This document shows, piece by piece, positions 4,122 through 59,348 of a DNA stretch of 64,000 nucleotides. Position numbers and translations under genes: made by a program. How positions within the stretch are numbered: position 1 is the first letter of the stretch; each line of letters starts with the position of its first letter. The DNA comes from an uncultured Eubacteriales bacterium (lineage in GTDB: Bacteria; Bacillota; Clostridia; Lachnospirales; Lachnospiraceae), in assembly GCA_900545175.1 (NCBI GenBank), contig UQYF01000005.1, forward strand, positions 29,890 through 93,889, in the 5' to 3' direction. A model generated the notes under the pieces. That model searched no databases. It saw only the letters and a list, made by a program, of their open reading frames with translations, and had not been told where the DNA came from.

Positions 4122-5843
4122 ATGTCAGGATTATCAGCGATTAATACAGTATGGGTGTTAATAGGTGCGGCACTGGTTTTCTTCATGCAGGCGGGCTTTG
4201 CAATGGTTGAGGCAGGCTTTACAAGAGCTAAAAATTCAGGAAATATCATTATGAAAAATCTTCTTGATTTAGCCATAGGAACAGTAATCTACTGGTTTGT
4301 CGGATTTGGGATAATGTTTGGAAGCGGAACTGTTATAGGAACAATCGATTTTTTCATAACAGGAAATTATGACAATATTCTTCCGGATGGTGTGTCAATA
4401 TGGACATATGTTATTTTTCAGACAGTATTCTGTGCGACAAGTGCAACAATAGTGTCGGGAGCGATGGCAGAGAGAACTAAGTTTTCTGCATATTGTATCT
4501 ACAGTGCGGTTATTTCACTTATTATTTATCCTGTGTCAGGTCACTGGATATGGGGCGGCGGCTGGCTGGCACAGCTTGGATTCCATGATTTTGCAGGTTC
4601 GACTGCGGTACATATGGTAGGCGGTGTTGCAGCTTTGGTAGGCGCTAAGATGCTTGGAGCGCGCATCGGAAAGTATGACAAGGATGGAAATTCAAGGGCG
4701 ATACCCGGACACAATATAGTTATAGGTGCACTCGGAGTGTTCATTTTATGGTTCTGCTGGTTCGGCTTTAACGGCTGTTCTACTGTGAATATGGAGGGTG
4801 ATAACATTGCTCTTGCCGGAAGGATATTTATGAATACCAACTTAAGCGCAGCGGTTGCAAGTGTCACAACAATGATTTTTACATGGATAAGGTACAGAAA
4901 GCCTGATGTATCTATGACACTTAACGGAGCTTTGGCAGGGCTTGTCGGAATAACAGCCGGCTGCGATATGGTAAGTCCGGCAGGTGCCGCATTTATAGGT
5001 CTTGTATGCGGGATTGTGATTGTGCTTGCGGTAGAATTCATAGACAGAAAATGTAAAATTGATGACCCGGTAGGTGCAATCAGTGTACACGGTGTATGTG
5101 GTATGCTTGGCACTGTCATGACAGGTCTTTTGTCAGAGTCGGAAGGACTGTTTTACGGAAAAGGATTTGGATTTTTCGCAGTTCAGGTTCTCGGTGTGGC
5201 GGCAGTTATTTTGTGGGTTGTGATTACTTCATTTATATTGTTTAAAATTATCGACAAGACGGTCGGACTGCGCGTTTCAAAGCGTGAGGAGATTGAAGGA
5301 CTTGATACTAATGAACATGGACTTTCAAATGCCTACGCTGACTTCCTTCCGAATGTTCAGGTTGATTCACTCGCAGGTGATTTTGCACAGGTCAGTGGAC
5401 TTGAGAAGCCTACAGATGTCCCTGTTGATGTTGCGATTCCGATTGCAGCTGCTTCGGATTACAGTGAGGCTGATAAGAAGGGAATTCTTACAAGAATAGA
5501 TATCATATTAAAACAGTCAAAATTTGAAGAACTAAAGGATGCGATGAACGATATCGGTGTAACAGGCATGACTGTCACACAGGTGCTTGGCTGTGGTATA
5601 CAAAAGGGTGCTACAGAGTATTACAGAGGCGTTCCTGTGGACATTCAGCTTCTACCGAAAGTGAAGGTTGAGATAATAGTTGCAAAGGTTCCTGTTGAGC
5701 AGGTTGTATCAACTGCAAGAAAGGTTCTCTACACAGGACATATCGGAGATGGCAAGATATTTATCTATGATGTGAGGGATTGTGTGAGAGTGAGAACGGG
5801 CGAAACAGGATATGACGCTATGCAGGGAATAAATGAAGCGTGA
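4122..5843 (+). CDS. amt: Ammonium transporter (Amt/MEP family) with a C-terminal fused P-II (GlnB/GlnK-like) nitrogen regulatory domain
   Basis: N-terminal ~400 aa is a multi-TM Amt; C-terminal ~110 aa matches P-II (GMTVTQVLGCGIQKG...RGVPVDIQLLPKVKVEIIV...GDGKIFIYDV...RVRTGE). Confidence 0.85.
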   Translation: MSGLSAINTVWVLIGAALVFFMQAGFAMVEAGFTRAKNSGNIIMKNLLDLAIGTVIYWFVGFGIMFGSGTVIGTIDFFITGNYDNILPDGVSIWTYVIFQTVFCATSATIVSGAMAERTKFSAYCIYSAVISLIIYPVSGHWIWGGGWLAQLGFHDFAGSTAVHMVGGVAALVGAKMLGARIGKYDKDGNSRAIPGHNIVIGALGVFILWFCWFGFNGCSTVNMEGDNIALAGRIFMNTNLSAAVASVTTMIFTWIRYRKPDVSMTLNGALAGLVGITAGCDMVSPAGAAFIGLVCGIVIVLAVEFIDRKCKIDDPVGAISVHGVCGMLGTVMTGLLSESEGLFYGKGFGFFAVQVLGVAAVILWVVITSFILFKIIDKTVGLRVSKREEIEGLDTNEHGLSNAYADFLPNVQVDSLAGDFAQVSGLEKPTDVPVDVAIPIAAASDYSEADKKGILTRIDIILKQSKFEELKDAMNDIGVTGMTVTQVLGCGIQKGATEYYRGVPVDIQLLPKVKVEIIVAKVPVEQVVSTARKVLYTGHIGDGKIFIYDVRDCVRVRTGETGYDAMQGINEA

Positions 5844-5887: not shown

Positions 5888-6898
5888 ATGAAGGTTGTTG
5901 TATGTCAGGGAGAGACAACCGGCTATCCGTCAAGGGATGAGCTGGTTGCTCTCTGGAAGGAAGAGATAGGTAAGATACCTGAGGTTGATGAGCTTGTAGT
6001 AAGAGAAAATTTTGATTATGAAAAAGTTGATGAGATTGCGGACGATGCAGATGCACTCATCGGTGTATGGATAAAGGATGGATTTTATACGGATGAATTT
6101 TTTGACAGGCATAAAAAGCTTAAATATATCGCAACAACAGCTCATGGCTTTGGAAAGATTGATGCGGAGTGTGCAAAAAGACATGGAGTCACTTTTACTA
6201 ATACTATATATGGAAACGTAACCATAGCACAGTATGCGATGGCACTTCTTATGAATATATGCCACAGGATTGACGCATTAAACGACATGTACCGGGAGGC
6301 ATGTGATGAACATAAGAATGTGATGATGGGAAGGAATCTTCCAAGACAGATAAGACAGATTGAGCTGTATGAAAAGACAATAGGAATTGTAGGCTTAGGA
6401 GCTATCGGACTTTGTATGGCCCGGATGGCAGCAGGCTTTGGAATGAAGGTTATAGCATATAACCACCACAAAAAGACAGGTTCGGAATATGATTTTGTCG
6501 AGCAGGTTTCCCTTGACGAGCTGTTAAGAAGGTCGGATGTCATATCTATACATTGCCCATCAACGGATGAGACAAGAGGAATGATTGACAAGAATGTGAT
6601 TAATAAGATGAAGGACGGAGTAATCCTTATCAACACTGCAAGAGGTGATATCATAGTTGAGGATGACTTGGTGGATGCGCTGAATTCAGGAAAAGTATAT
6701 GCGGCAGGACTTGATGTTGTATGTAACGAGCCGGTTGTACAGAGAATACCGCTTATGGACTGTCCGAATGCAATCATTACACCTCATATGGCGTGGGCTC
6801 CGGCTGAGGCAAGATACAGGACAGTTAGGATAGCATCAGATAATCTAAAAAACTGGATTGAGGGTCATCCGACAAGTGTTATTAACGGAAAGGGCTGA
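5888..6898 (+). CDS. D-isomer-specific 2-hydroxyacid dehydrogenase (NAD-binding)
   Basis: RBS AAGGAGGAG; Rossmann GxGxxG motif (GIVGLGAIGLCMA); catalytic-domain similarity to the glycerate/phosphoglycerate dehydrogenase family. Confidence 0.8.
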   Translation: MKVVVCQGETTGYPSRDELVALWKEEIGKIPEVDELVVRENFDYEKVDEIADDADALIGVWIKDGFYTDEFFDRHKKLKYIATTAHGFGKIDAECAKRHGVTFTNTIYGNVTIAQYAMALLMNICHRIDALNDMYREACDEHKNVMMGRNLPRQIRQIELYEKTIGIVGLGAIGLCMARMAAGFGMKVIAYNHHKKTGSEYDFVEQVSLDELLRRSDVISIHCPSTDETRGMIDKNVINKMKDGVILINTARGDIIVEDDLVDALNSGKVYAAGLDVVCNEPVVQRIPLMDCPNAIITPHMAWAPAEARYRTVRIASDNLKNWIEGHPTSVINGKG

Positions 6899-9446: not shown

Positions 9447-9599
9447 AAATGCTGTGCAGGACTTAAAAATTCAGCTTGACAATTCATATGCGTTTAATTA
9501 TTATTAGTTCATAAAATAAGAGATGCGAAGCATCAATTTTTTATGAGCATGAAGCGAAAGCGGATTGCAGATATCATTGACTATATGAAAAAGCTATGA

Positions 9600-9905
9600 A
9601 GGGAAGAAGTAGATATTTTTAGGAGCCTACAGAGAGCTGCCGGGTGGTGAGAGGCGCACAGGTAACGGAATATTGAATACATCCTAGAGCATTGCACCGA
9701 AAGAAAGATAATTTTTTTAGTAGGCTGTGACGGCAGCACCCGTTATAGTGCAGAGGTATCGATTAAAAGTGTGAAGGATTACTTCTGAAACAGCTTTTGG
9801 TCTGTACTTGGTGAGGCACCGGATGTGAGTTCGGTGTGAAGTAAGGTGGTAACACGTTTATATACGTCCTTACAGTAGTAATCGCTGCTGTAAGGATTTT
9901 TTTAT
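9600..9905 (+). ncRNA. T-box leader riboswitch (likely tyrosine-specific) controlling tyrS
   Basis: Stem-I like region with AGAGAG/GGTGAGAG; candidate specifier loop GAA-UAC-A; T-box-like AAGGTGGTAACACG; terminator TCCTTACAG...CTGTAAGGA plus T7 at about 9868-9905. Confidence 0.55.
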
Positions 9906-13219: not shown

Positions 13220-13233
13220 TAAGCGTAGGACAG

Positions 13234-13282
13234 AGGGGTGTGACATTATTGTATAACAATGTTGTCACACCCCTTTGTCTTA
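13234..13282 (+). terminator. Intrinsic terminator
   Basis: AGGGGTGTGACA...TGTCACACCCCT followed by TTGTCTTATTT. Confidence 0.7.
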
Positions 13283-15551: not shown

Positions 15552-17396
15552 ATGAGCGAAAATAGAGAATATTCAAAGAGCAGAAATATGGGCAGACGTG
15601 GTCCGGGAGGGCATGGAATGATGCCCGGCGAGAAGGCAAAGGACTTTAAAGGTACGACAAGGAAAATTCTGTCATATGTTGGCAGATATAAGATTGCAAT
15701 AGTGCTTGTAATGATATGTGCTGTTATGGGAACTATTTTTAATATAGTAGGTCCTAAGGTGCTTTCTAAGGCGACAACAGAGATATTTAACGGTCTTGTA
15801 TCTAAAGTGTCGGGTGGAGCAGGTATTGATTTTCACAAGATAGGTGTTATTTTACTTATCCTTCTTGGACTTTATTGTGTCAGTGCACTGTTTTCATTCA
15901 TACAGGGCTTTATAATGAGCGGCATTTCACAGAAGCTAAGCTTCAGAATGAGAAAGGAAATTTCTGAGAAAATTAACAGAATGCCTCTTGCATATTTTGA
16001 ATCTAAGACTGTCGGAGAAGTGCTTTCAAGAATAACCAACGATGTTGATACATTCGGAATGAGCCTTAACCAGAGTATCACGACACTTATCACATCTGTG
16101 ACAACGCTTATAGGTGTATTTATAATGATGATGACTATAAGTCCTCTTATGACGCTTATTGCACTTGTGATACTTCCGATATCAGCATTTTTGATAAGTG
16201 TTGTTGTAAAGCATTCGCAAAAGTACTTTAAGGCACAACAGGAATACTTAGGAGATATCAACGGTGCTATCGAGGAATCATACAGCGGACACACCATAAT
16301 AAAGGCATTTAACCGCGAAGAGAAAGTAAATGAGAGCTTTCAGGAGACAAATGCGAAGCTGTATTCATCAGCGTGGAAATCACAGTTCTTATCTGGACTT
16401 ATGCAGCCTATAATGACATTTGTCGGAAATCTTGGCTATGTTGCCGTGGCTGTGACAGGTAGTATGCTTGCAGTTGCCGGCTCGATTACGGTAGGTGATA
16501 TTCAGGCATTTATACAGTATGTAAGGAGCTTTACACAGCCTATAACACAGATTGCACAGGTATTTAACATGCTTCAGTCGATGGCTGCCGCAGCAGAGAG
16601 AATATTCGAATTCCTTGACGAGGAAGAGGAGCCTGTAACTGAGAATCCTGTAAGGCTTGATGAGATTAAGGGAGAGGTTGATTTTGAGCATGTTAAGTTC
16701 GGCTACGACCCTGAGAAACCTGTCATCCACGATTTTACATGCCATGTAAAACCGGGAAGCATGGTGGCAATCGTAGGTCCTACAGGAGCAGGAAAGACCA
16801 CGATGGTTAAGCTTCTCATGCGCTTTTATGATGTCAATTCCGGATGTATCAGGGTTGACGGAGAAAATGTCAAGGATTTTGAGAGAAGGAATCTACGTGA
16901 AGCATTTGGAATGGTGCTTCAGGATACCTGGCTGTTCAAGGGAACAATCATGGAAAATATCAGATACGGACGACTTGATGCTACCGATGAGGAGGTTATC
17001 GCAGCAGCTAAGGCGGCTAATGCTGACCATTTTATAAGGACTCTTCCGGGTGGCTATGATATGGAGCTTAATGAGGAGGCAAGCAACGTCTCTCAGGGAC
17101 AGAAGCAGCTTCTCACAATCGCAAGAGCCATTCTTGCCGACAACAGGATAATGATTCTTGATGAGGCTACAAGCTCGGTAGATACAAGAACAGAACAGCA
17201 CATTCAGGATGCGATGGCAAATCTTATGAAGGGAAGAACGAGCTTTGTCATAGCTCACAGACTCTCAACAATAAGAGATGCGGATGTCATTCTTGTGATG
17301 AAGGACGGAGATATTATAGAGCAGGGTAATCACAACGAGCTGCTTGCAGGAAACGGATTCTATGCACAGCTTTATAACAGCCAGTTTGAGGCATAA
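15552..17396 (+). CDS. ABC exporter, fused permease/ATPase subunit 2
   Basis: Walker A GPTGAGKTT, signature VSQGQKQLLTIARA, Walker B ILDEATSSVD; adjacent to subunit 1. Confidence 0.85.
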   Translation: MSENREYSKSRNMGRRGPGGHGMMPGEKAKDFKGTTRKILSYVGRYKIAIVLVMICAVMGTIFNIVGPKVLSKATTEIFNGLVSKVSGGAGIDFHKIGVILLILLGLYCVSALFSFIQGFIMSGISQKLSFRMRKEISEKINRMPLAYFESKTVGEVLSRITNDVDTFGMSLNQSITTLITSVTTLIGVFIMMMTISPLMTLIALVILPISAFLISVVVKHSQKYFKAQQEYLGDINGAIEESYSGHTIIKAFNREEKVNESFQETNAKLYSSAWKSQFLSGLMQPIMTFVGNLGYVAVAVTGSMLAVAGSITVGDIQAFIQYVRSFTQPITQIAQVFNMLQSMAAAAERIFEFLDEEEEPVTENPVRLDEIKGEVDFEHVKFGYDPEKPVIHDFTCHVKPGSMVAIVGPTGAGKTTMVKLLMRFYDVNSGCIRVDGENVKDFERRNLREAFGMVLQDTWLFKGTIMENIRYGRLDATDEEVIAAAKAANADHFIRTLPGGYDMELNEEASNVSQGQKQLLTIARAILADNRIMILDEATSSVDTRTEQHIQDAMANLMKGRTSFVIAHRLSTIRDADVILVMKDGDIIEQGNHNELLAGNGFYAQLYNSQFEA

Positions 17397-17399
17397 AAA

Positions 17400-17468
17400 G
17401 TCTGGGACAGGTGTCTGACCCCTTGTCCCAGTTTTGGGACATAGGGGTCAGACACCCCTGTCCCAGAC
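17400..17468. other. 69-nt composite imperfect palindrome (24-26 bp outer stem enclosing a 7-bp inner hairpin) with no T-tract, between the ABC exporter stop and the next start codon
   Basis: GTCTGGGACAGGTGTCTGACCCCT / TGTCCCAGttttGGGACA / AGGGGTCAGACACCCCTGTCCCAGAC, read directly. Confidence 0.6.
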
Positions 17469-17484
17469 AGAATGGAGATGGATT

Positions 17485-19479
17485 ATGAAGCGTCTGATTA
17501 ACAGCAGGAAGGATTTGTTCACTATCCCTAATCTTATGGGGTATTTTCGTATAATACTTATTCCTATATTCATGGCGGTCTATATAGGAGCTGACAACAG
17601 GGCGGATTATATCGCTGCCGCAGTCATACTTGGAATATCCGGGCTTACGGACTGTTTTGACGGAAAAGTGGCAAGACATTTTAATATGATAACTGAGTGG
17701 GGCAAGGTGTTAGACCCTGTGGCGGATAAGCTTACGCAGGCGGCAGTGTTTATAAGCCTGTCCTTCCGCTATCCTACGATGAGATATCTTGTGATACTCT
17801 TTGTCGTGAAGGAAATGTTCATGGGTATTATGGGTGCTGTCATGTTAAAAAAAGGAAGCATGATGGACGGAGCAAGGTGGTACGGAAAGCTCTGCACTGC
17901 AGTGCTGTACGGAGCGATGTTCATGCTGCTGCTGGTAGTTGACCTCTCATATTTTGCGGCGGGGCTTATTATCTCAATCTGCATTATCATGAACGTCTTT
18001 TCGTTTGCATGTTACATAGTGTACTATGTGCGCGTGCTTATGAATAAGCCTGTTACAAGCGGAAAAATTAAGATGTGGAAGCCTGTGACGACAATTATCG
18101 GTTTTGTCCTTGTGTATGTGGTTATCAATCTGGCGATAGCGGTTGTAGGAAGCTCTAAGCAGCCGGAGTATAATGGCGATAAGCAGGTTGCAATGCAAAG
18201 TACTGATGGCACTGAGCGGGCGGTCATTGTCGAGGATAATTCGGATGCACTTTTAAGCAGAGTAAGGATGATACAGAATGCACAGTCGGAAATAATTCTT
18301 TCTACCTTTGATTTTATGTCGGATGAGAGCGGCAGGATAATGATTGGCGCACTGTGTGAAGCGGCTGAAAAAGGAGTGAAGGTGGAGGTGCTTGTCGATG
18401 GCTTTGACGGTGTTCTTCATATGAAGTGGAATCCTTACTTTTATGCATTGTCTGCGAATGAAAATGTAACTCTGATGATGTACAATGAGATAAATCCGTT
18501 CACTATGTACAAAGGCATGGCGAGAATGCATGACAAGTATCTTGTTGTGGACAGACAGATTTATATGCTTGGCGGAAGGAATACATTTAACTATTTCCTC
18601 GGAGACTACAGTAATTACAAAAATTATGACAGGGATGTTCTTGTGTGGAGGAGAAAGCCGGCAGCACAGCAGGAAAATGCGTCTGTCAATGAGCTTTTAG
18701 CTTACTATGAGACGGTCAAAAACAGCGGTGAATGCAGCAGTTTCGCACATGGAAAAAGTCTTGCGGACAGATACTGTGTGAAGCACGCTATGGAGCGTAT
18801 AGAGGAGGAATATGAAAAATACTGCTCTGAACATGAAGAGCTTTCAGATGAGTATTCCTATGAGGATAATACGTTTCAGGTTGAAAGTATAGCTCTGCTT
18901 TCAAATCCGGTGAATGCAGGAGTGAAGGAGCCTGTTGTATGGCATAAGCTTATGAGCCTTATAGGCAGTGCTAAGGAGTCCGTAAAGCTGCACACACCAT
19001 ACATAATCTGTAATGATATGATGTATGATACTATAAAGGACGCAGCCGCAGGAAAGGAAGTCACGGTAATGACTAATTCCGTTGCGAACAATGGCAACAG
19101 CTTCGGAGCGGCAGACCTTGAAAAGAACAGGGACAGAATGCTTGACACAGGTGTAACTTTATTAGAATACGATGGTGGAGTGTCATACCACGGAAAGAGC
19201 ATGGTGATTGACGATGACATATCCGTGGTCGGATCGTTCAATATGGATATGAGGAGCGCATATCTTGACACAGAGCTTATGCTTGTGATTAAAAGTGATG
19301 AGCTGAATGCACAGCTTCGTACTATCATGTCGGAATATGAAAAATCGGCGGTAATAGCATTGCTGGATGGCAGATATGACAATCCTAACAATGTTGTGCC
19401 GCAGGAGATAACAACAACGCGCAAGGTGAGAAAAAATATCATAAAGATGCTGTTTTACTGGGCGAGGTTTCTGTTCTGA
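17485..19479 (+). CDS. Fusion protein: N-terminal CDP-alcohol phosphatidyltransferase domain plus a C-terminal phospholipase-D/cardiolipin-synthase-like domain with two HKD motifs
   Basis: CDP-OH-P motif DGKVARHFNMITEWGKVLDPVADKL; HKD motifs HDKYLVVD and HGKSMVIDDD; N-terminal TM helices; the ORF is open from 17434 but the RBS-compatible start is ATG 17485. Confidence 0.75.
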   Translation: MKRLINSRKDLFTIPNLMGYFRIILIPIFMAVYIGADNRADYIAAAVILGISGLTDCFDGKVARHFNMITEWGKVLDPVADKLTQAAVFISLSFRYPTMRYLVILFVVKEMFMGIMGAVMLKKGSMMDGARWYGKLCTAVLYGAMFMLLLVVDLSYFAAGLIISICIIMNVFSFACYIVYYVRVLMNKPVTSGKIKMWKPVTTIIGFVLVYVVINLAIAVVGSSKQPEYNGDKQVAMQSTDGTERAVIVEDNSDALLSRVRMIQNAQSEIILSTFDFMSDESGRIMIGALCEAAEKGVKVEVLVDGFDGVLHMKWNPYFYALSANENVTLMMYNEINPFTMYKGMARMHDKYLVVDRQIYMLGGRNTFNYFLGDYSNYKNYDRDVLVWRRKPAAQQENASVNELLAYYETVKNSGECSSFAHGKSLADRYCVKHAMERIEEEYEKYCSEHEELSDEYSYEDNTFQVESIALLSNPVNAGVKEPVVWHKLMSLIGSAKESVKLHTPYIICNDMMYDTIKDAAAGKEVTVMTNSVANNGNSFGAADLEKNRDRMLDTGVTLLEYDGGVSYHGKSMVIDDDISVVGSFNMDMRSAYLDTELMLVIKSDELNAQLRTIMSEYEKSAVIALLDGRYDNPNNVVPQEITTTRKVRKNIIKMLFYWARFLF

Positions 19480-43060: not shown

Positions 43061-44146
43061 ATGATTAAGGGAGTAGATATATCTACCTTACTTGAACTTG
43101 AAAAACTTAAAACAAAATATTATGACAATGGAGCTGAAAGAAAGCTTGAAGAAATCTTAGCTTCACATGGAGTCAACAGTGTGAGACTGAGGTTGTGGAA
43201 CAGTCCCTTCGACATTGATGGAGTGGCATACGGCGGCGGAAGTGACGACCTTGTGACTGTCATTGAGACTGCCAGAAGATGTAAGGCTGCCGGAATGAGC
43301 TTCTTGCTTGATTTTCATTATAGTGATTTCTGGGCTGACACAGGCAGGCAGATTAAGCCTAAGGCATGGAGAAGCTATAAGCTTGACAAGCTTTGTGAAG
43401 CAGTGAAAAGATATACAGTGTCAGTGCTTGAGTATCTTGCGGCAGCAGGTGTTTCACCGGATATGGTTCAGCCGGGCAATGAGATATCGAACGGAATTCT
43501 CTGGCCGGAAGGAAGATTCCCTGAGTACGAAGCGGCTTGCAGGCTTTTAGAGGCAGCTATATCGGGAATACGCTACGGTGCACCAAAAGCAAAGGTTGTG
43601 CTTCATACTGCGGCAGAGCCGGAACACGAAGTATATACGGCATTTCTTGACGAGTATGGCAAAAAACTTGATTACGACATTATAGGAATTTCATATTTTC
43701 CTTATAAAAAATCATACGGTCTTGGCACTTTGAAAGAGAATATTGACAGGCTTTCCGAAAAATACGGCAAAGAAGTATGTGTTGTGGAGACTGCAATGCC
43801 TTATACAGTGCAGGATTATGCCATTAAAGAAAAGCTGAGAGCCAACGCAAGAAAAGGCATGGCATCGAAGAATACAGCAATTCTTCAAAATCTCAATTAT
43901 GACATAAGCCCCGAAGGGCAGCTTAAGTATATGCAGGAATTCGTTGTAATGGTGCAAAAATGCGCTTCATGCATAGGATTTTACTATTGGGAGCCTGCGT
44001 GGATTCCGGTTGTCGGTTCAGGATGGGCAACGAGCGCCTCTATTCAATATCTCGGAGTGAAGGAGCCATGCGGGAATGAGTGGGCTAATCAGGCTCTATT
44101 TGATTATGAAGGAAATGCGCTTCCTGCGTTAAAGGCATTTGAATAA
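43061..44146 (+). CDS. Arabinogalactan endo-beta-1,4-galactanase (GH53), apparently cytoplasmic
   Basis: GVDISTLLELE N-terminus and the PGNEI catalytic-acid region typical of GH53; no signal peptide. Confidence 0.75.
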   Translation: MIKGVDISTLLELEKLKTKYYDNGAERKLEEILASHGVNSVRLRLWNSPFDIDGVAYGGGSDDLVTVIETARRCKAAGMSFLLDFHYSDFWADTGRQIKPKAWRSYKLDKLCEAVKRYTVSVLEYLAAAGVSPDMVQPGNEISNGILWPEGRFPEYEAACRLLEAAISGIRYGAPKAKVVLHTAAEPEHEVYTAFLDEYGKKLDYDIIGISYFPYKKSYGLGTLKENIDRLSEKYGKEVCVVETAMPYTVQDYAIKEKLRANARKGMASKNTAILQNLNYDISPEGQLKYMQEFVVMVQKCASCIGFYYWEPAWIPVVGSGWATSASIQYLGVKEPCGNEWANQALFDYEGNALPALKAFE

Positions 44147-44339
44147 GTGGATTTAATAGACAATAATAAATAAGTTATTTTAAAAGGAATGAATAACATG
44201 ATAAATTGAGTTGCTTCTCAAATAGCATGTTATCCATTCCTTTTTTTAGAGAGTTATGCAGATAATTGTGAAGCTATATAAAGAGCAAATTGACAAAAAC
44301 ACATAACAATTCGGAAAAAAGCAGCGCAGTTATCTGGTT

Positions 44340-45344
44340 TTAATTATTGTCAGCCGGAGCCTTTCCTACAGATTCACGCAACACAACTGTTGAGTGGAGA
44401 AGCATTGTGCTCACAGGAAGTCCCGACATTAAATCTTTTAGAAGAGCAAATGCTGATTTGCCAAGAGCAAACCGCTCCTGCCTTATGGTGGTTAAAGGAG
44501 GTGCAAGATATTTTGCTACGGGAAGGTCATCAAAGCCTGTTACACTGACATCCTCCGGAACGCGGAGTCCGAGCTTGTGAAGTTCATTTATTGTTCTTGC
44601 CGCAATCAGGTCGCTTGCACACATGATTGCTGTGGCACCTTTATCTGTGAAAGACTTGACAAAATCGGACACTGTCTCGTCAGGGTAGTAGACAGTATGT
44701 CCGATGAGCTGCATATCAAGGTCAAGCTCAGCTTCGTTCATTGCCTGTATGAAGCCCTGATATCTGAGTGCGGATATGTAGCTGTTCTTTGAACCGTTTA
44801 GAAAGGCTATCTTTTTGTGACCGTTTTCTTTAAGGTAATGTATGAGTGTCGAAAAACCGACATGAATATCCGTTCCCACATATGCAATATGCTCATTGGA
44901 AATATAGTTGTCGAAGAGAACAGTAGGGATTGTAGTCTTTTCAAGCTGCTTCATATATGCCTCATTGAGCTCAAGCCCAAGGAAAAAGGCACCTGAATAG
45001 CCGTTCTGTTTCATAAGGCTGTCGTAGGTCTGCCATGTCTGGAAATACTGGTCTATGGGAACAATATCCACCTCAAACTGAGCCTCACTTGCAACGAGGC
45101 GGAAGCCTGCTATAAGCTCATAACCGAACTGGTTGATATTCGCATATTCCATATTCTCTACTATAATACATACCTTCTGCCTTGAAGCCGGCTTCTTCTC
45201 CTTGATAACATAGCCCATCTCAATTGCGGTATCTAAGACCTGCTGACGCATCTCCTCACTGATATCGCTGGCACCATGCAGTCCCTTAGAGACTGTACTT
45301 ATAGAAATGCCGAGTCTTTCGGCGATGTCCTTTATAGTTACCAT
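44340..45344 (-). CDS. LacI-family transcriptional regulator
   Basis: N-terminal HTH (VTIKDIAERLGISISTVSKGL) plus a periplasmic-binding-fold domain; RBS AAGAGGA. Confidence 0.85.
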   Translation of the reverse strand: MVTIKDIAERLGISISTVSKGLHGASDISEEMRQQVLDTAIEMGYVIKEKKPASRQKVCIIVENMEYANINQFGYELIAGFRLVASEAQFEVDIVPIDQYFQTWQTYDSLMKQNGYSGAFFLGLELNEAYMKQLEKTTIPTVLFDNYISNEHIAYVGTDIHVGFSTLIHYLKENGHKKIAFLNGSKNSYISALRYQGFIQAMNEAELDLDMQLIGHTVYYPDETVSDFVKSFTDKGATAIMCASDLIAARTINELHKLGLRVPEDVSVTGFDDLPVAKYLAPPLTTIRQERFALGKSAFALLKDLMSGLPVSTMLLHSTVVLRESVGKAPADNN

Positions 45345-58949: not shown

Positions 58950-59320
58950 GTCTACCAGTTGGCTGAATAATCGCGGCTGCATATGTCGAAAGACCGCAGG
59001 TGAGGAAAGTCCGGGCTTCATAGGGCAGGATGCCGGATAACGTCCGGTGGAGGTGACTCTAAGACCAGTGCAACAGAAATATACCGCCACAGGCGTAATG
59101 CCGAGGCTCCGCAAGGACGTGGTAAGGGCGGAAGGGCAGTGTAAGAGACTACCGCCTGTCTGGTAACAGACAGGGCACATGTAAACTCCATCCGAAGCAA
59201 GACCGAATAAGAGACAGTGACGTGGCCCGCCAGTCTCAGGTTGGTCGCTTGAACCTGTTGGCAACAGCAGGTCTAGATAGATGATTATTCACGACATAAC
59301 CCGGCTTACAGGCTGACTGG
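58950..59320 (+). ncRNA. rnpB: RNase P RNA (bacterial type B)
   Basis: GAGGAAAGTCCGGGCTTCATAGGGCAGGATGCCGGATAACGTCCGG (P4 5' strand) ... AGGGCGGAAGGGCAG ... ACATAACCCGGCTTACAGG (P4 3' strand); P1 pairing of CCAGTTGGCTG with CAGGCTGACTGG. Confidence 0.85.
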
Positions 59321-59348
59321 TGGTTATTTACCAATAGGAGATTTTTCG

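Follow-up and report, generated by a model that had tools for sequence, protein, structure and literature searches.

The 69-nt palindrome at positions 17400 to 17468 of the window (the whole stretch of DNA that was analyzed, 64 kb long) is best explained as a REPIN-like doublet of REP units belonging to a REP/RAYT system of gut Lachnospiraceae-like Bacillota, a reading to which we assign a probability of roughly 0.78. The element is probably a mobile-DNA relic of the general REP/REPIN kind, since the same hairpin is scattered in related gut Clostridia genomes and a transposase gene was found that is accompanied by the same hairpins. Under this explanation, two short palindromic REP units in inverted orientation, together with the 6-nt spacer between them, would make up a single REPIN-like element.

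The palindrome lies between two plus-strand genes. Upstream is the gene for an ABC exporter of 614 aa (ABC_membrane plus ABC_tran; 15552 to 17396), and downstream is that for a 664-aa fusion of CDP-alcohol phosphatidyltransferase and PLD-like domains (PgsA-PLD; 17485 to 19479). A mechanical list of open reading frames (ORFs) opens the PgsA-PLD gene at TTG 17434, but its start is instead placed at the ATG at 17485 to 17487, which has GGAG upstream of it, so that the intergenic gap is 88 nt, the length given in the initial annotation along with the correct sequence (GTCTGGGACAGGTGTCTGACCCCTTGTCCCAGTTTTGGGACATAGGGGTCAGACACCCCTGTCCCAGAC) and coordinates of the palindrome. The doublet begins 3 nt past the exporter stop codon (TAA, 17394 to 17396) and ends 16 nt ahead of the PgsA-PLD start codon, and the Shine-Dalgarno sequence of the latter gene (GGAG, 17474 to 17477, plus strand) starts 5 nt past the base of the hairpin and is free in the fold. 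Because the 16 nt to the next start codon leave no room for a promoter, the doublet is probably transcribed within a polycistronic mRNA.

The doublet, its two units, and the spacer are listed without a strand, and the hairpin of approximately 31 bp can form on either one. The left unit, GGGACAGGTGTCTGACCCCTTGTCCC (17404 to 17429), has the core GTCTGAC and one additional T on its inner arm, and the right unit, GGGACATAGGGGTCAGACACCCCTGTCCC (17436 to 17464), has the core GTCAGAC and an additional TA on its inner arm; this difference between the cores indicates that the units are inverted relative to each other. Both were delimited by pattern match, and an nhmmer search with a profile of 106 units placed them at 17402 to 17431 (E = 9e-9) and 17434 to 17466 (E = 2e-7), respectively. 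The spacer between them is AGTTTT (17430 to 17435). The initial annotation saw two structures, an outer stem and, inside it, a hairpin of its own with the loop gtttt, but the predicted fold is instead one continuous stem of approximately 31 bp with one 1-nt bulge, one 2-nt bulge, and a loop of only 4 nt, GTTT at 17431 to 17434 (GUUU in RNA), and at the base of this stem GTCT (17400 to 17403) is paired with AGAC (17465 to 17468). The shared GGGACAG and CTGTCCC words from which the palindrome was said to be built are indeed present, but the halves that contain them are two inverted copies of one near-palindromic unit.

The folding energy, proposed earlier as a check on the palindrome, supported it clearly. 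The RNA of positions 17390 to 17480 folded at -60.7 kcal/mol compared to a mean of -28.4 for shuffled sequences (z = -8.9), with 0 of 200 shuffles as stable, and the minus-strand RNA of the hairpin region gave the same outcome. Folded as DNA, the hairpin reached -36.1 kcal/mol (z = -9.6). Folded apart, the two halves reached only -15.9 and -19.5, against -59.2 for the long hairpin, by far the most stable of the three. The GC content of the palindrome (59%) is higher than that of the whole window (41.6%) and of neighboring 70-nt windows (approximately 44 to 50%), although to call it far above its surroundings, as had been done, overstates the difference. The pattern GGGACA-N6-30-TGTCCC had two matches in the 64-kb window, both within this palindrome, with 0.03 expected, and neither pattern nor profile searches found any further copy of the palindrome in the window. 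A comparison with Rfam gave no family at gathering thresholds; permissive E-values returned only generic miRNA-hairpin models, which were far below those thresholds. The unique occurrence that the initial annotation named as grounds for refutation is therefore true of the window but not of the species and its relatives.

We scanned metagenomes with the pattern GGGACA-N0-2-GGGGTCAGAC-N1-4-CTGTCCC, which specifies 23 bases, and at least 120 contigs matched. Among the matches listed, most were human-gut contigs with a GC content of 40 to 47%, similar to that of the window; 170 units were counted in 130 loci, 92 of which had a singlet and 36 an inverted doublet, with a few nested forms, and strict-flank clustering separated approximately 45 distinct flanking contexts. 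Comparison of the copies defined a unit of 25 to 29 nt with the consensus T-GGGACAGGGGTC-(A/T)-GACCCCTGTCCC-A, also written TGGGACAGGGGTC-A/T-GACCCCTGTCCCA. Its 27 nt form a palindrome that is almost perfect, with a 13-nt core that is palindromic too. At 40 distinct singlet sites, a T at position -1 and an A at position +1 were each present in 30, nothing further out was conserved, and neither a GTAG nor a CGTC tag was seen in the flank composition. No target-site duplication or direct repeats flanked the units, only the complementary T/A pair at -1/+1. Approximately 30 distinct doublet sequences were collected, with spacers of 4 to 50 nt and folding energies from -55 to -98 kcal/mol, and the doublets were 58 to 69 nt long. 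Units within doublets carry 1 to 2 extra bases on one arm, which form a bulge when the unit is alone and are fully paired in the long hairpin.

The units are found mostly in extragenic DNA, and approximately two-thirds of the evaluable gut-type sites are no more than 40 nt from the 3' end of a gene. Among the matches listed, the flanking genes were in tandem at 20 sites, convergent at 8, and divergent at 2, and the remaining sites were at contig edges or within ORFs called by a crude ORF caller. Since about half of the 8 sites called inside ORFs were on high-GC soil contigs and the others overlapped short or doubtful ORFs of gut contigs, this last category was given little weight. Several sites can occur in one assembly: contig OAUU01000011.1 holds two of them (L019 and L088), and a third (L125) is in the same assembly. 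An exact 19-mer scan of the GTDB species-representative genomes (596 Gb) gave five loci, including one in an uncultured Eubacterium sp. metagenome-assembled genome (MAG) in which an unrelated locus (L004) is built in the same composite way and one in a rumen Bacillota MAG with two single units (L001). The other three, in Acidimicrobiaceae (twice) and Nitrososphaerales, were taken as chance matches because a few matches to a 19-mer are expected in 596 Gb. Viral contigs scanned with the unit pattern gave 0 matches and no sign of a phage origin. In the window's species, approximately 85 kb of readable sequence contained one doublet and three units around a transposase gene, and most of the family sites that were found may belong to sister species.

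Some of the matches departed from the common forms. Six soil contigs of 70 to 77% GC (L030, L045, L048, L093, L118, and L119) contain a near-identical palindrome, GGGGACAGGGGGTCAGACCCCCTGTCCCC, of which L093 has two copies 53 nt apart; these palindromes could be an independent REP family that has the same core, distant relatives, or chance GC-rich matches. In the nested forms (L033, L035, L041, L073, L074, and L100), a complete unit is enclosed by a GGGACAGGGG half-unit and a CCCCTGTCCC half-unit, in some cases together with repeats of the word GGGACAGGGGACTCT, which suggests that units were inserted into units or that the palindromes grew. One contig of 56% GC (L078, 59 to 213) has two direct copies, 126 nt apart, of a longer repeat that consists of 30 nt of common upstream sequence followed by a GGGACAGAGTAGTCTGACCCCTGTGTCCC unit.

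A hallmark of REP/RAYT systems is a transposase gene with REP flanks, and a candidate was sought among ORFs bracketed by units. One such ORF (L081, 3964 to 4764) encodes a protein of 266 aa that matches Pfam Y1_Tnp (PF01797) with an E value of 3.7e-12 and a score of 46.9 bits against a cutoff of 23. Its sole NCBIfam match was the REP-associated tyrosine transposase NF047646, at 75.9 bits and thus under the cutoff of 80, and its sole PDB match was a weak one (E = 0.0066) to 4ER8, E. coli TnpA-REP, in an alignment that spans both the HUH motif (HVH) and the Tyr motif YIFNNPVKAGLV (Y-I-x-x-N-P-V). The transposase, of approximately 270 aa, has an additional C-terminal helix-turn-helix-like region. 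Close homologues of the L081 protein fall into large clusters, one of 514 members that is 99% identical to the query and one of 89 members that is 70% identical, and more distant ones (no more than 43% identity) are Bacillota proteins, some of which are named RayT by their sources. A tblastn search of the window and of the first 141 loci gave a RAYT in L081 and L043 alone.

The association of the units with this gene is constant across the contigs examined. One unit lies approximately 42 to 45 nt ahead of the transposase gene and another overlaps its stop codon, the 3' unit of L081 encoding the last transposase codons and the TGA stop, and units were present on both sides in every contig examined (L081, L142, and L143 to L154). 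This flanking is common to two transposase orthologues from two species that are 70% identical to each other, and the gene order of RidA, RAYT-like gene, and NlpC/P60 was the same in all contigs read from the two species. The two flanking units are apparently in the same orientation and not inverted, but their orientation is nearly meaningless because the unit is so symmetric. The upstream units of L081 (3895 to 3921) and L142 (7304 to 7330) differ in the central base alone, GTCTGAC versus GTCAGAC, within contigs that are approximately 99% identical around that unit, and this difference resembles a flip of the palindrome center. The orthologue with 70% identity (P0273) has intact HUH and Tyr motifs and also scores 75.9 bits in NCBIfam. 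It is encoded on a contig of 535,050 nt (ena:ERZ4963561:contig_9855), at 302 to 323 kb (L152), with units at 9820, 9927, and 10787 of that locus. The same contig, at 36 to 58 kb, contains a locus (L155) in which the doublet is present and 22 kb match the window at 97.6 to 97.9% identity. The presence of both loci on one contig demonstrates that the window's species carries the transposase gene with its flanking units, approximately 265 kb from the doublet locus.

We compared the spacer between the ABC exporter and PgsA-PLD genes in contigs with homologues of the downstream protein at falling identity and in metagenome matches sharing the flanks, and 14 spacer alleles were tabulated. Named homologues, at 50 to 65% identity, place the window's organism as Lachnospiraceae-like. 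The alleles of the window's species (A1, L155, and L111) have an identical doublet or one that differs by one extra C or by one G/T change. A sister species, with a 91% identical PgsA-PLD protein and approximately 85% identical DNA, has several doublet variants, a perfect singlet (L052), a singlet that corresponds to the right-hand unit (L082), and an 11-nt remnant, GTCTGGGACAG (L014 and L015), and this remnant allele is present in several samples. The remnant has exactly the sequence that results when the element is deleted between its flanking GACAGG direct repeats. Lineages with an 87 to 89% identical protein have an unrelated hairpin, GG(G)ACGGAG...CTCCGTCC, in the spacer, and at 82% and 67% protein identity the spacer lacks a hairpin altogether. 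The unrelated hairpin, more fully GG(G)ACGGAG(A/G)...TCTCCGTCC, is at 9893 to 9920 of L016, where a second hairpin comes after it, and at 6387 to 6417 of L139, and it was not found elsewhere among the fetched loci.

Singlet and doublet alleles were also seen at four other sites (L025 versus L027, L116 versus L065, L062 versus L060, and L024/L075 versus L070/L113/L122). Every such singlet is the expected leftover of a deletion between short direct repeats, which exist because the palindromic core reads alike in both inverted units. The polymorphisms would fit palindrome-stimulated slippage deletions equally well, and among the alleles compared there was no clean empty site, transposition event, or filled-versus-empty pair with identical flanks. 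The existence of natural alleles that are missing half or nearly all of the doublet indicates that it is dispensable. A minor consequence of the remnant alleles concerns annotation: in L014 (3864 to 5930) and L015, gene callers lengthen the PgsA-PLD ORF into the end of the ABC gene, and such calls of 688 aa, which make up six protein clusters of that length, are artifacts of the remnant alleles.

The variety of hairpins at this locus bears on an alternative that we consider unlikely, namely, that the palindrome is a host-selected intercistronic RNA element that sets the expression of the ABC exporter relative to that of the phospholipid-synthesis gene, whether by holding up 3' exonucleases, by being cut by RNase III, or by attenuating transcription in part, and that its copies are alike through a preferred hairpin sequence and not through mobility. 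The three different hairpins found in the spacer across lineages (the doublet, the GGACGGAG hairpin of L016 and L139, and the singlets) could mean that some hairpin is selected at this spot, and the position of the hairpin, just past the stop codon with the Shine-Dalgarno sequence left free, would suit such a role, as would the frequent placement of family members just past the 3' end of a gene. Selection of this sort is harder to reconcile with the lineages that have no hairpin and with the recurrence of the remnant allele, and the presence of an identical 27-nt sequence at approximately 45 unrelated loci and in the flanks of a transposase gene is unlike independent selection for hairpins. 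An effect on RNA is also compatible with the REPIN explanation, as a secondary consequence of the element, and the protein binding proposed in the initial annotation may be another such consequence.

Such a secondary effect can be outlined by analogy with E. coli REP/BIME elements. These are said to lie in operons, such as between malE and malF, and to form a barrier to 3' exonucleases that leads to differential mRNA stability, reportedly the finding of Newbury and colleagues in 1987. The doublet resembles them in being intercistronic and just past a stop codon, and a role as a 3'-exonuclease barrier would be expected from this resemblance. The RNA hairpin of approximately 31 bp could halt exonucleases that degrade in the 3'-to-5' direction, or it could be cleaved by RNase III, and in either way the mRNA upstream of it could come to differ in stability from the mRNA downstream. 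Unlike a typical single E. coli REP, its 31-bp duplex should be long enough for RNase III. The RNase set of Bacillota differs from that of E. coli and includes RNase Y, RNase J, and PNPase.

It is still less probable that the palindrome is an intrinsic terminator, either one that stops antisense transcription into the ABC operon or a U-tract-independent attenuator on the sense strand. The 3' flank of the hairpin on the sense strand, AGAAUGGAGAUGG, has no U-tract, and the initial annotation was right that for this strand the palindrome is not a canonical terminator. Its statement that there is no U-tract does not hold for the minus strand, on which the stem is followed directly by TTTTTAT (UUUUUAU in RNA); the exporter stop codon and A-run (TAAAAA, 17394 to 17399, plus strand) supply a T5 tract when read on that strand, immediately 3' to the hairpin. 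This antisense tract would fit a terminator, but no minus-strand gene faces the hairpin, and on the sense strand there would be no promoter room after it for the downstream gene. The family as a whole is divided, with a T-tract on at least one side at 18 of 37 gut-type sites, which favors termination, and none at the other 19, which does not. At the site orthologous to 44129 to 44354, two units replace an AT-rich terminator-like hairpin of the window, a further point in favor, whereas a consensus terminator scan did not report the palindrome. The weakest alternatives, a classical MITE derived from a DDE-type insertion sequence (with terminal inverted repeats and a target-site duplication) and a palindromic operator for a dimeric regulator, would account for the perfect dyad symmetry and for a presence that varies at orthologous sites, but they are very improbable given flanks without a direct-repeat duplication, a unit of just 25 to 29 nt, an associated gene for an HUH/Y1 rather than a DDE transposase, and approximately 45 sites beside unrelated genes, which misfit one regulon. 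The REP/MITE-like reading that had been offered earlier is supported and can be narrowed to a REP doublet of a multicopy family with a putative cognate RAYT-type gene in the same species.

Under the preferred reading, a REPIN-like doublet, a mechanism can be proposed from the precedents of REP/RAYT and IS200/IS605 systems and of E. coli TnpA-REP. The units would be recognized as single-stranded DNA hairpins by the HUH/Y1 transposase and, by analogy with the first two systems, may be copied or excised by the RAYT-like transposase, and this copy would have landed, or been kept, 3 nt past the ABC exporter stop codon. The REP/RAYT system itself is reportedly that of Nunvar and colleagues, from 2010. 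Like the REPIN/RAYT elements of Pseudomonas fluorescens SBW25 and E. coli, the gut family includes extragenic inverted doublets that form one long hairpin, its singlets resemble decay products of doublets, with asymmetric excision remnants, and its Y1/HUH transposase gene is at a fixed position, flanked by units, and single copy in the contigs read. It differs from them in its host, which belongs to the gut Clostridia (Bacillota) and not to the Gammaproteobacteria, in its unit, a 27-nt almost perfect palindrome without a GTAG tag, in its doublets of 58 to 69 rather than approximately 100 nt, and in its transposase of approximately 270 aa, which has an extra C-terminal region and a stop codon inside the 3' unit. 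Its copy number also looks modest, tens and not hundreds. The transposase shares with IS200/IS605 the Y1 HUH fold (PF01797) and subterminal hairpins, but, unlike those elements, the gut transposase gene is syntenic across species and single copy in the contigs read rather than multicopy, and the hairpins would have spread on their own.

These features can be set against published definitions. A REPIN is an inverted REP doublet with asymmetric extra bases that are paired in the long hairpin (Bertels & Rainey 2011, PMC3116915). REPINs have been linked solely to group 2 and 3 RAYTs, those of Gammaproteobacteria (bioRxiv 10.1101/2021.07.10.451892; PMC5581495), and group 1 RAYTs have been noted in Clostridia, with a weak 16-mer enrichment (Bertels et al.; bioRxiv 10.1101/2021.07.10.451892; PMC5581495). 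The signature of a RAYT is a single conserved position with REP flanks (bioRxiv 10.1101/2021.07.10.451892). Tagged REPs have been listed in Proteobacteria, Cyanobacteria, Chloroflexi, the PVC group, Chlorobi, Bacteroidetes, Spirochaetes, and Thermotogae, with no Firmicutes among the hosts (Di Nocera 2013, PMC3733652). Compared to those GTAG/CGTC REPs (PMC3733652), the gut units form stem-loops of a size within the range of 5- to 13-bp stems, are placed after coding regions where the neighboring genes are tandem or convergent, and occur as head-to-head dimers with a single large stem-loop as their fold, but they have neither tag, and their flanks conserve T(-1) and A(+1) alone. A full-text search with 12-mers of the unit returned eukaryotic papers only and none that gave this sequence for a bacterium, and no description of a REP/REPIN family of this sort in Bacillota was found in the literature searched.

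A more specific proposal, which we hold tentatively and at a little under even odds, is that these elements are an undescribed REPIN-RAYT system of Bacillota. Its 27-nt REP would be tagless and perfectly symmetric, its RAYT would be longer and would end in a domain that resembles DNA-binding ones, and its doublets, singlets, and remnants would still be turning over, a process directly visible in the alleles of different human gut metagenomes. REP/REPIN-RAYT systems are treated as essentially proteobacterial in the literature searched, and a gut-Clostridia family would extend the phenomenon to another phylum and to a unit without the tag that is thought to guide cleavage. If the proposal is true, vertically inherited replicators of the REPIN type also exist outside the Gammaproteobacteria, and replicator dynamics could be traced in natural human-associated populations, for which the doublet, singlet, and remnant alleles in hundreds of public gut metagenomes would provide natural data on rates of gain and decay. 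GC-rich hairpins of 60 to 70 nt inside operons are also candidates for causes of altered mRNA stability, assembly breaks, and miscalled gene starts, an example of the last being the remnant allele that leads to a PgsA-PLD call of 688 rather than 664 aa.

Other hairpins were observed in the window or at sites orthologous to it. A second long palindrome, TAGGACAGAGGGGTGTGACATTATTGT / ACAATGTTGTCACACCCCTTTGTCTTA, is at 13226 to 13282, just past the stop codon of a gene for a HAAS-domain protein and upstream of the ABC operon, and is followed by a T-rich tail. It has a 12-nt exact match, GGACAGAGGGGT, to a REP unit variant, and the unit profile (nhmmer) did not detect it. At the same site the sister species has a degenerate REP doublet (L011, approximately 5612 to 5680), L139 has a remnant, and L016 has a different palindrome, GGGGTCTG...CAGACCCC. 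The 13226 to 13282 palindrome may be a decayed REP relative; if so, the ABC gene pair would have a REP-derived hairpin on either side. Between the convergent genes at 44129 to 44354, the window has an AT-rich bidirectional terminator-like hairpin with arms at 44182 to 44203 and 44223 to 44244. The orthologous site has two REP units in sister-species L019 (4560 to 4623), L037, L063, and L101, the first of them followed by ATTTTTTG, and REP units seem to replace, or act as, terminator hairpins there. Two further structured elements of the window are ordinary, a T-box leader upstream of the tyrosyl-tRNA synthetase gene (9587 to 9874) and a bacterial class A RNase P RNA (58955 to 59324).
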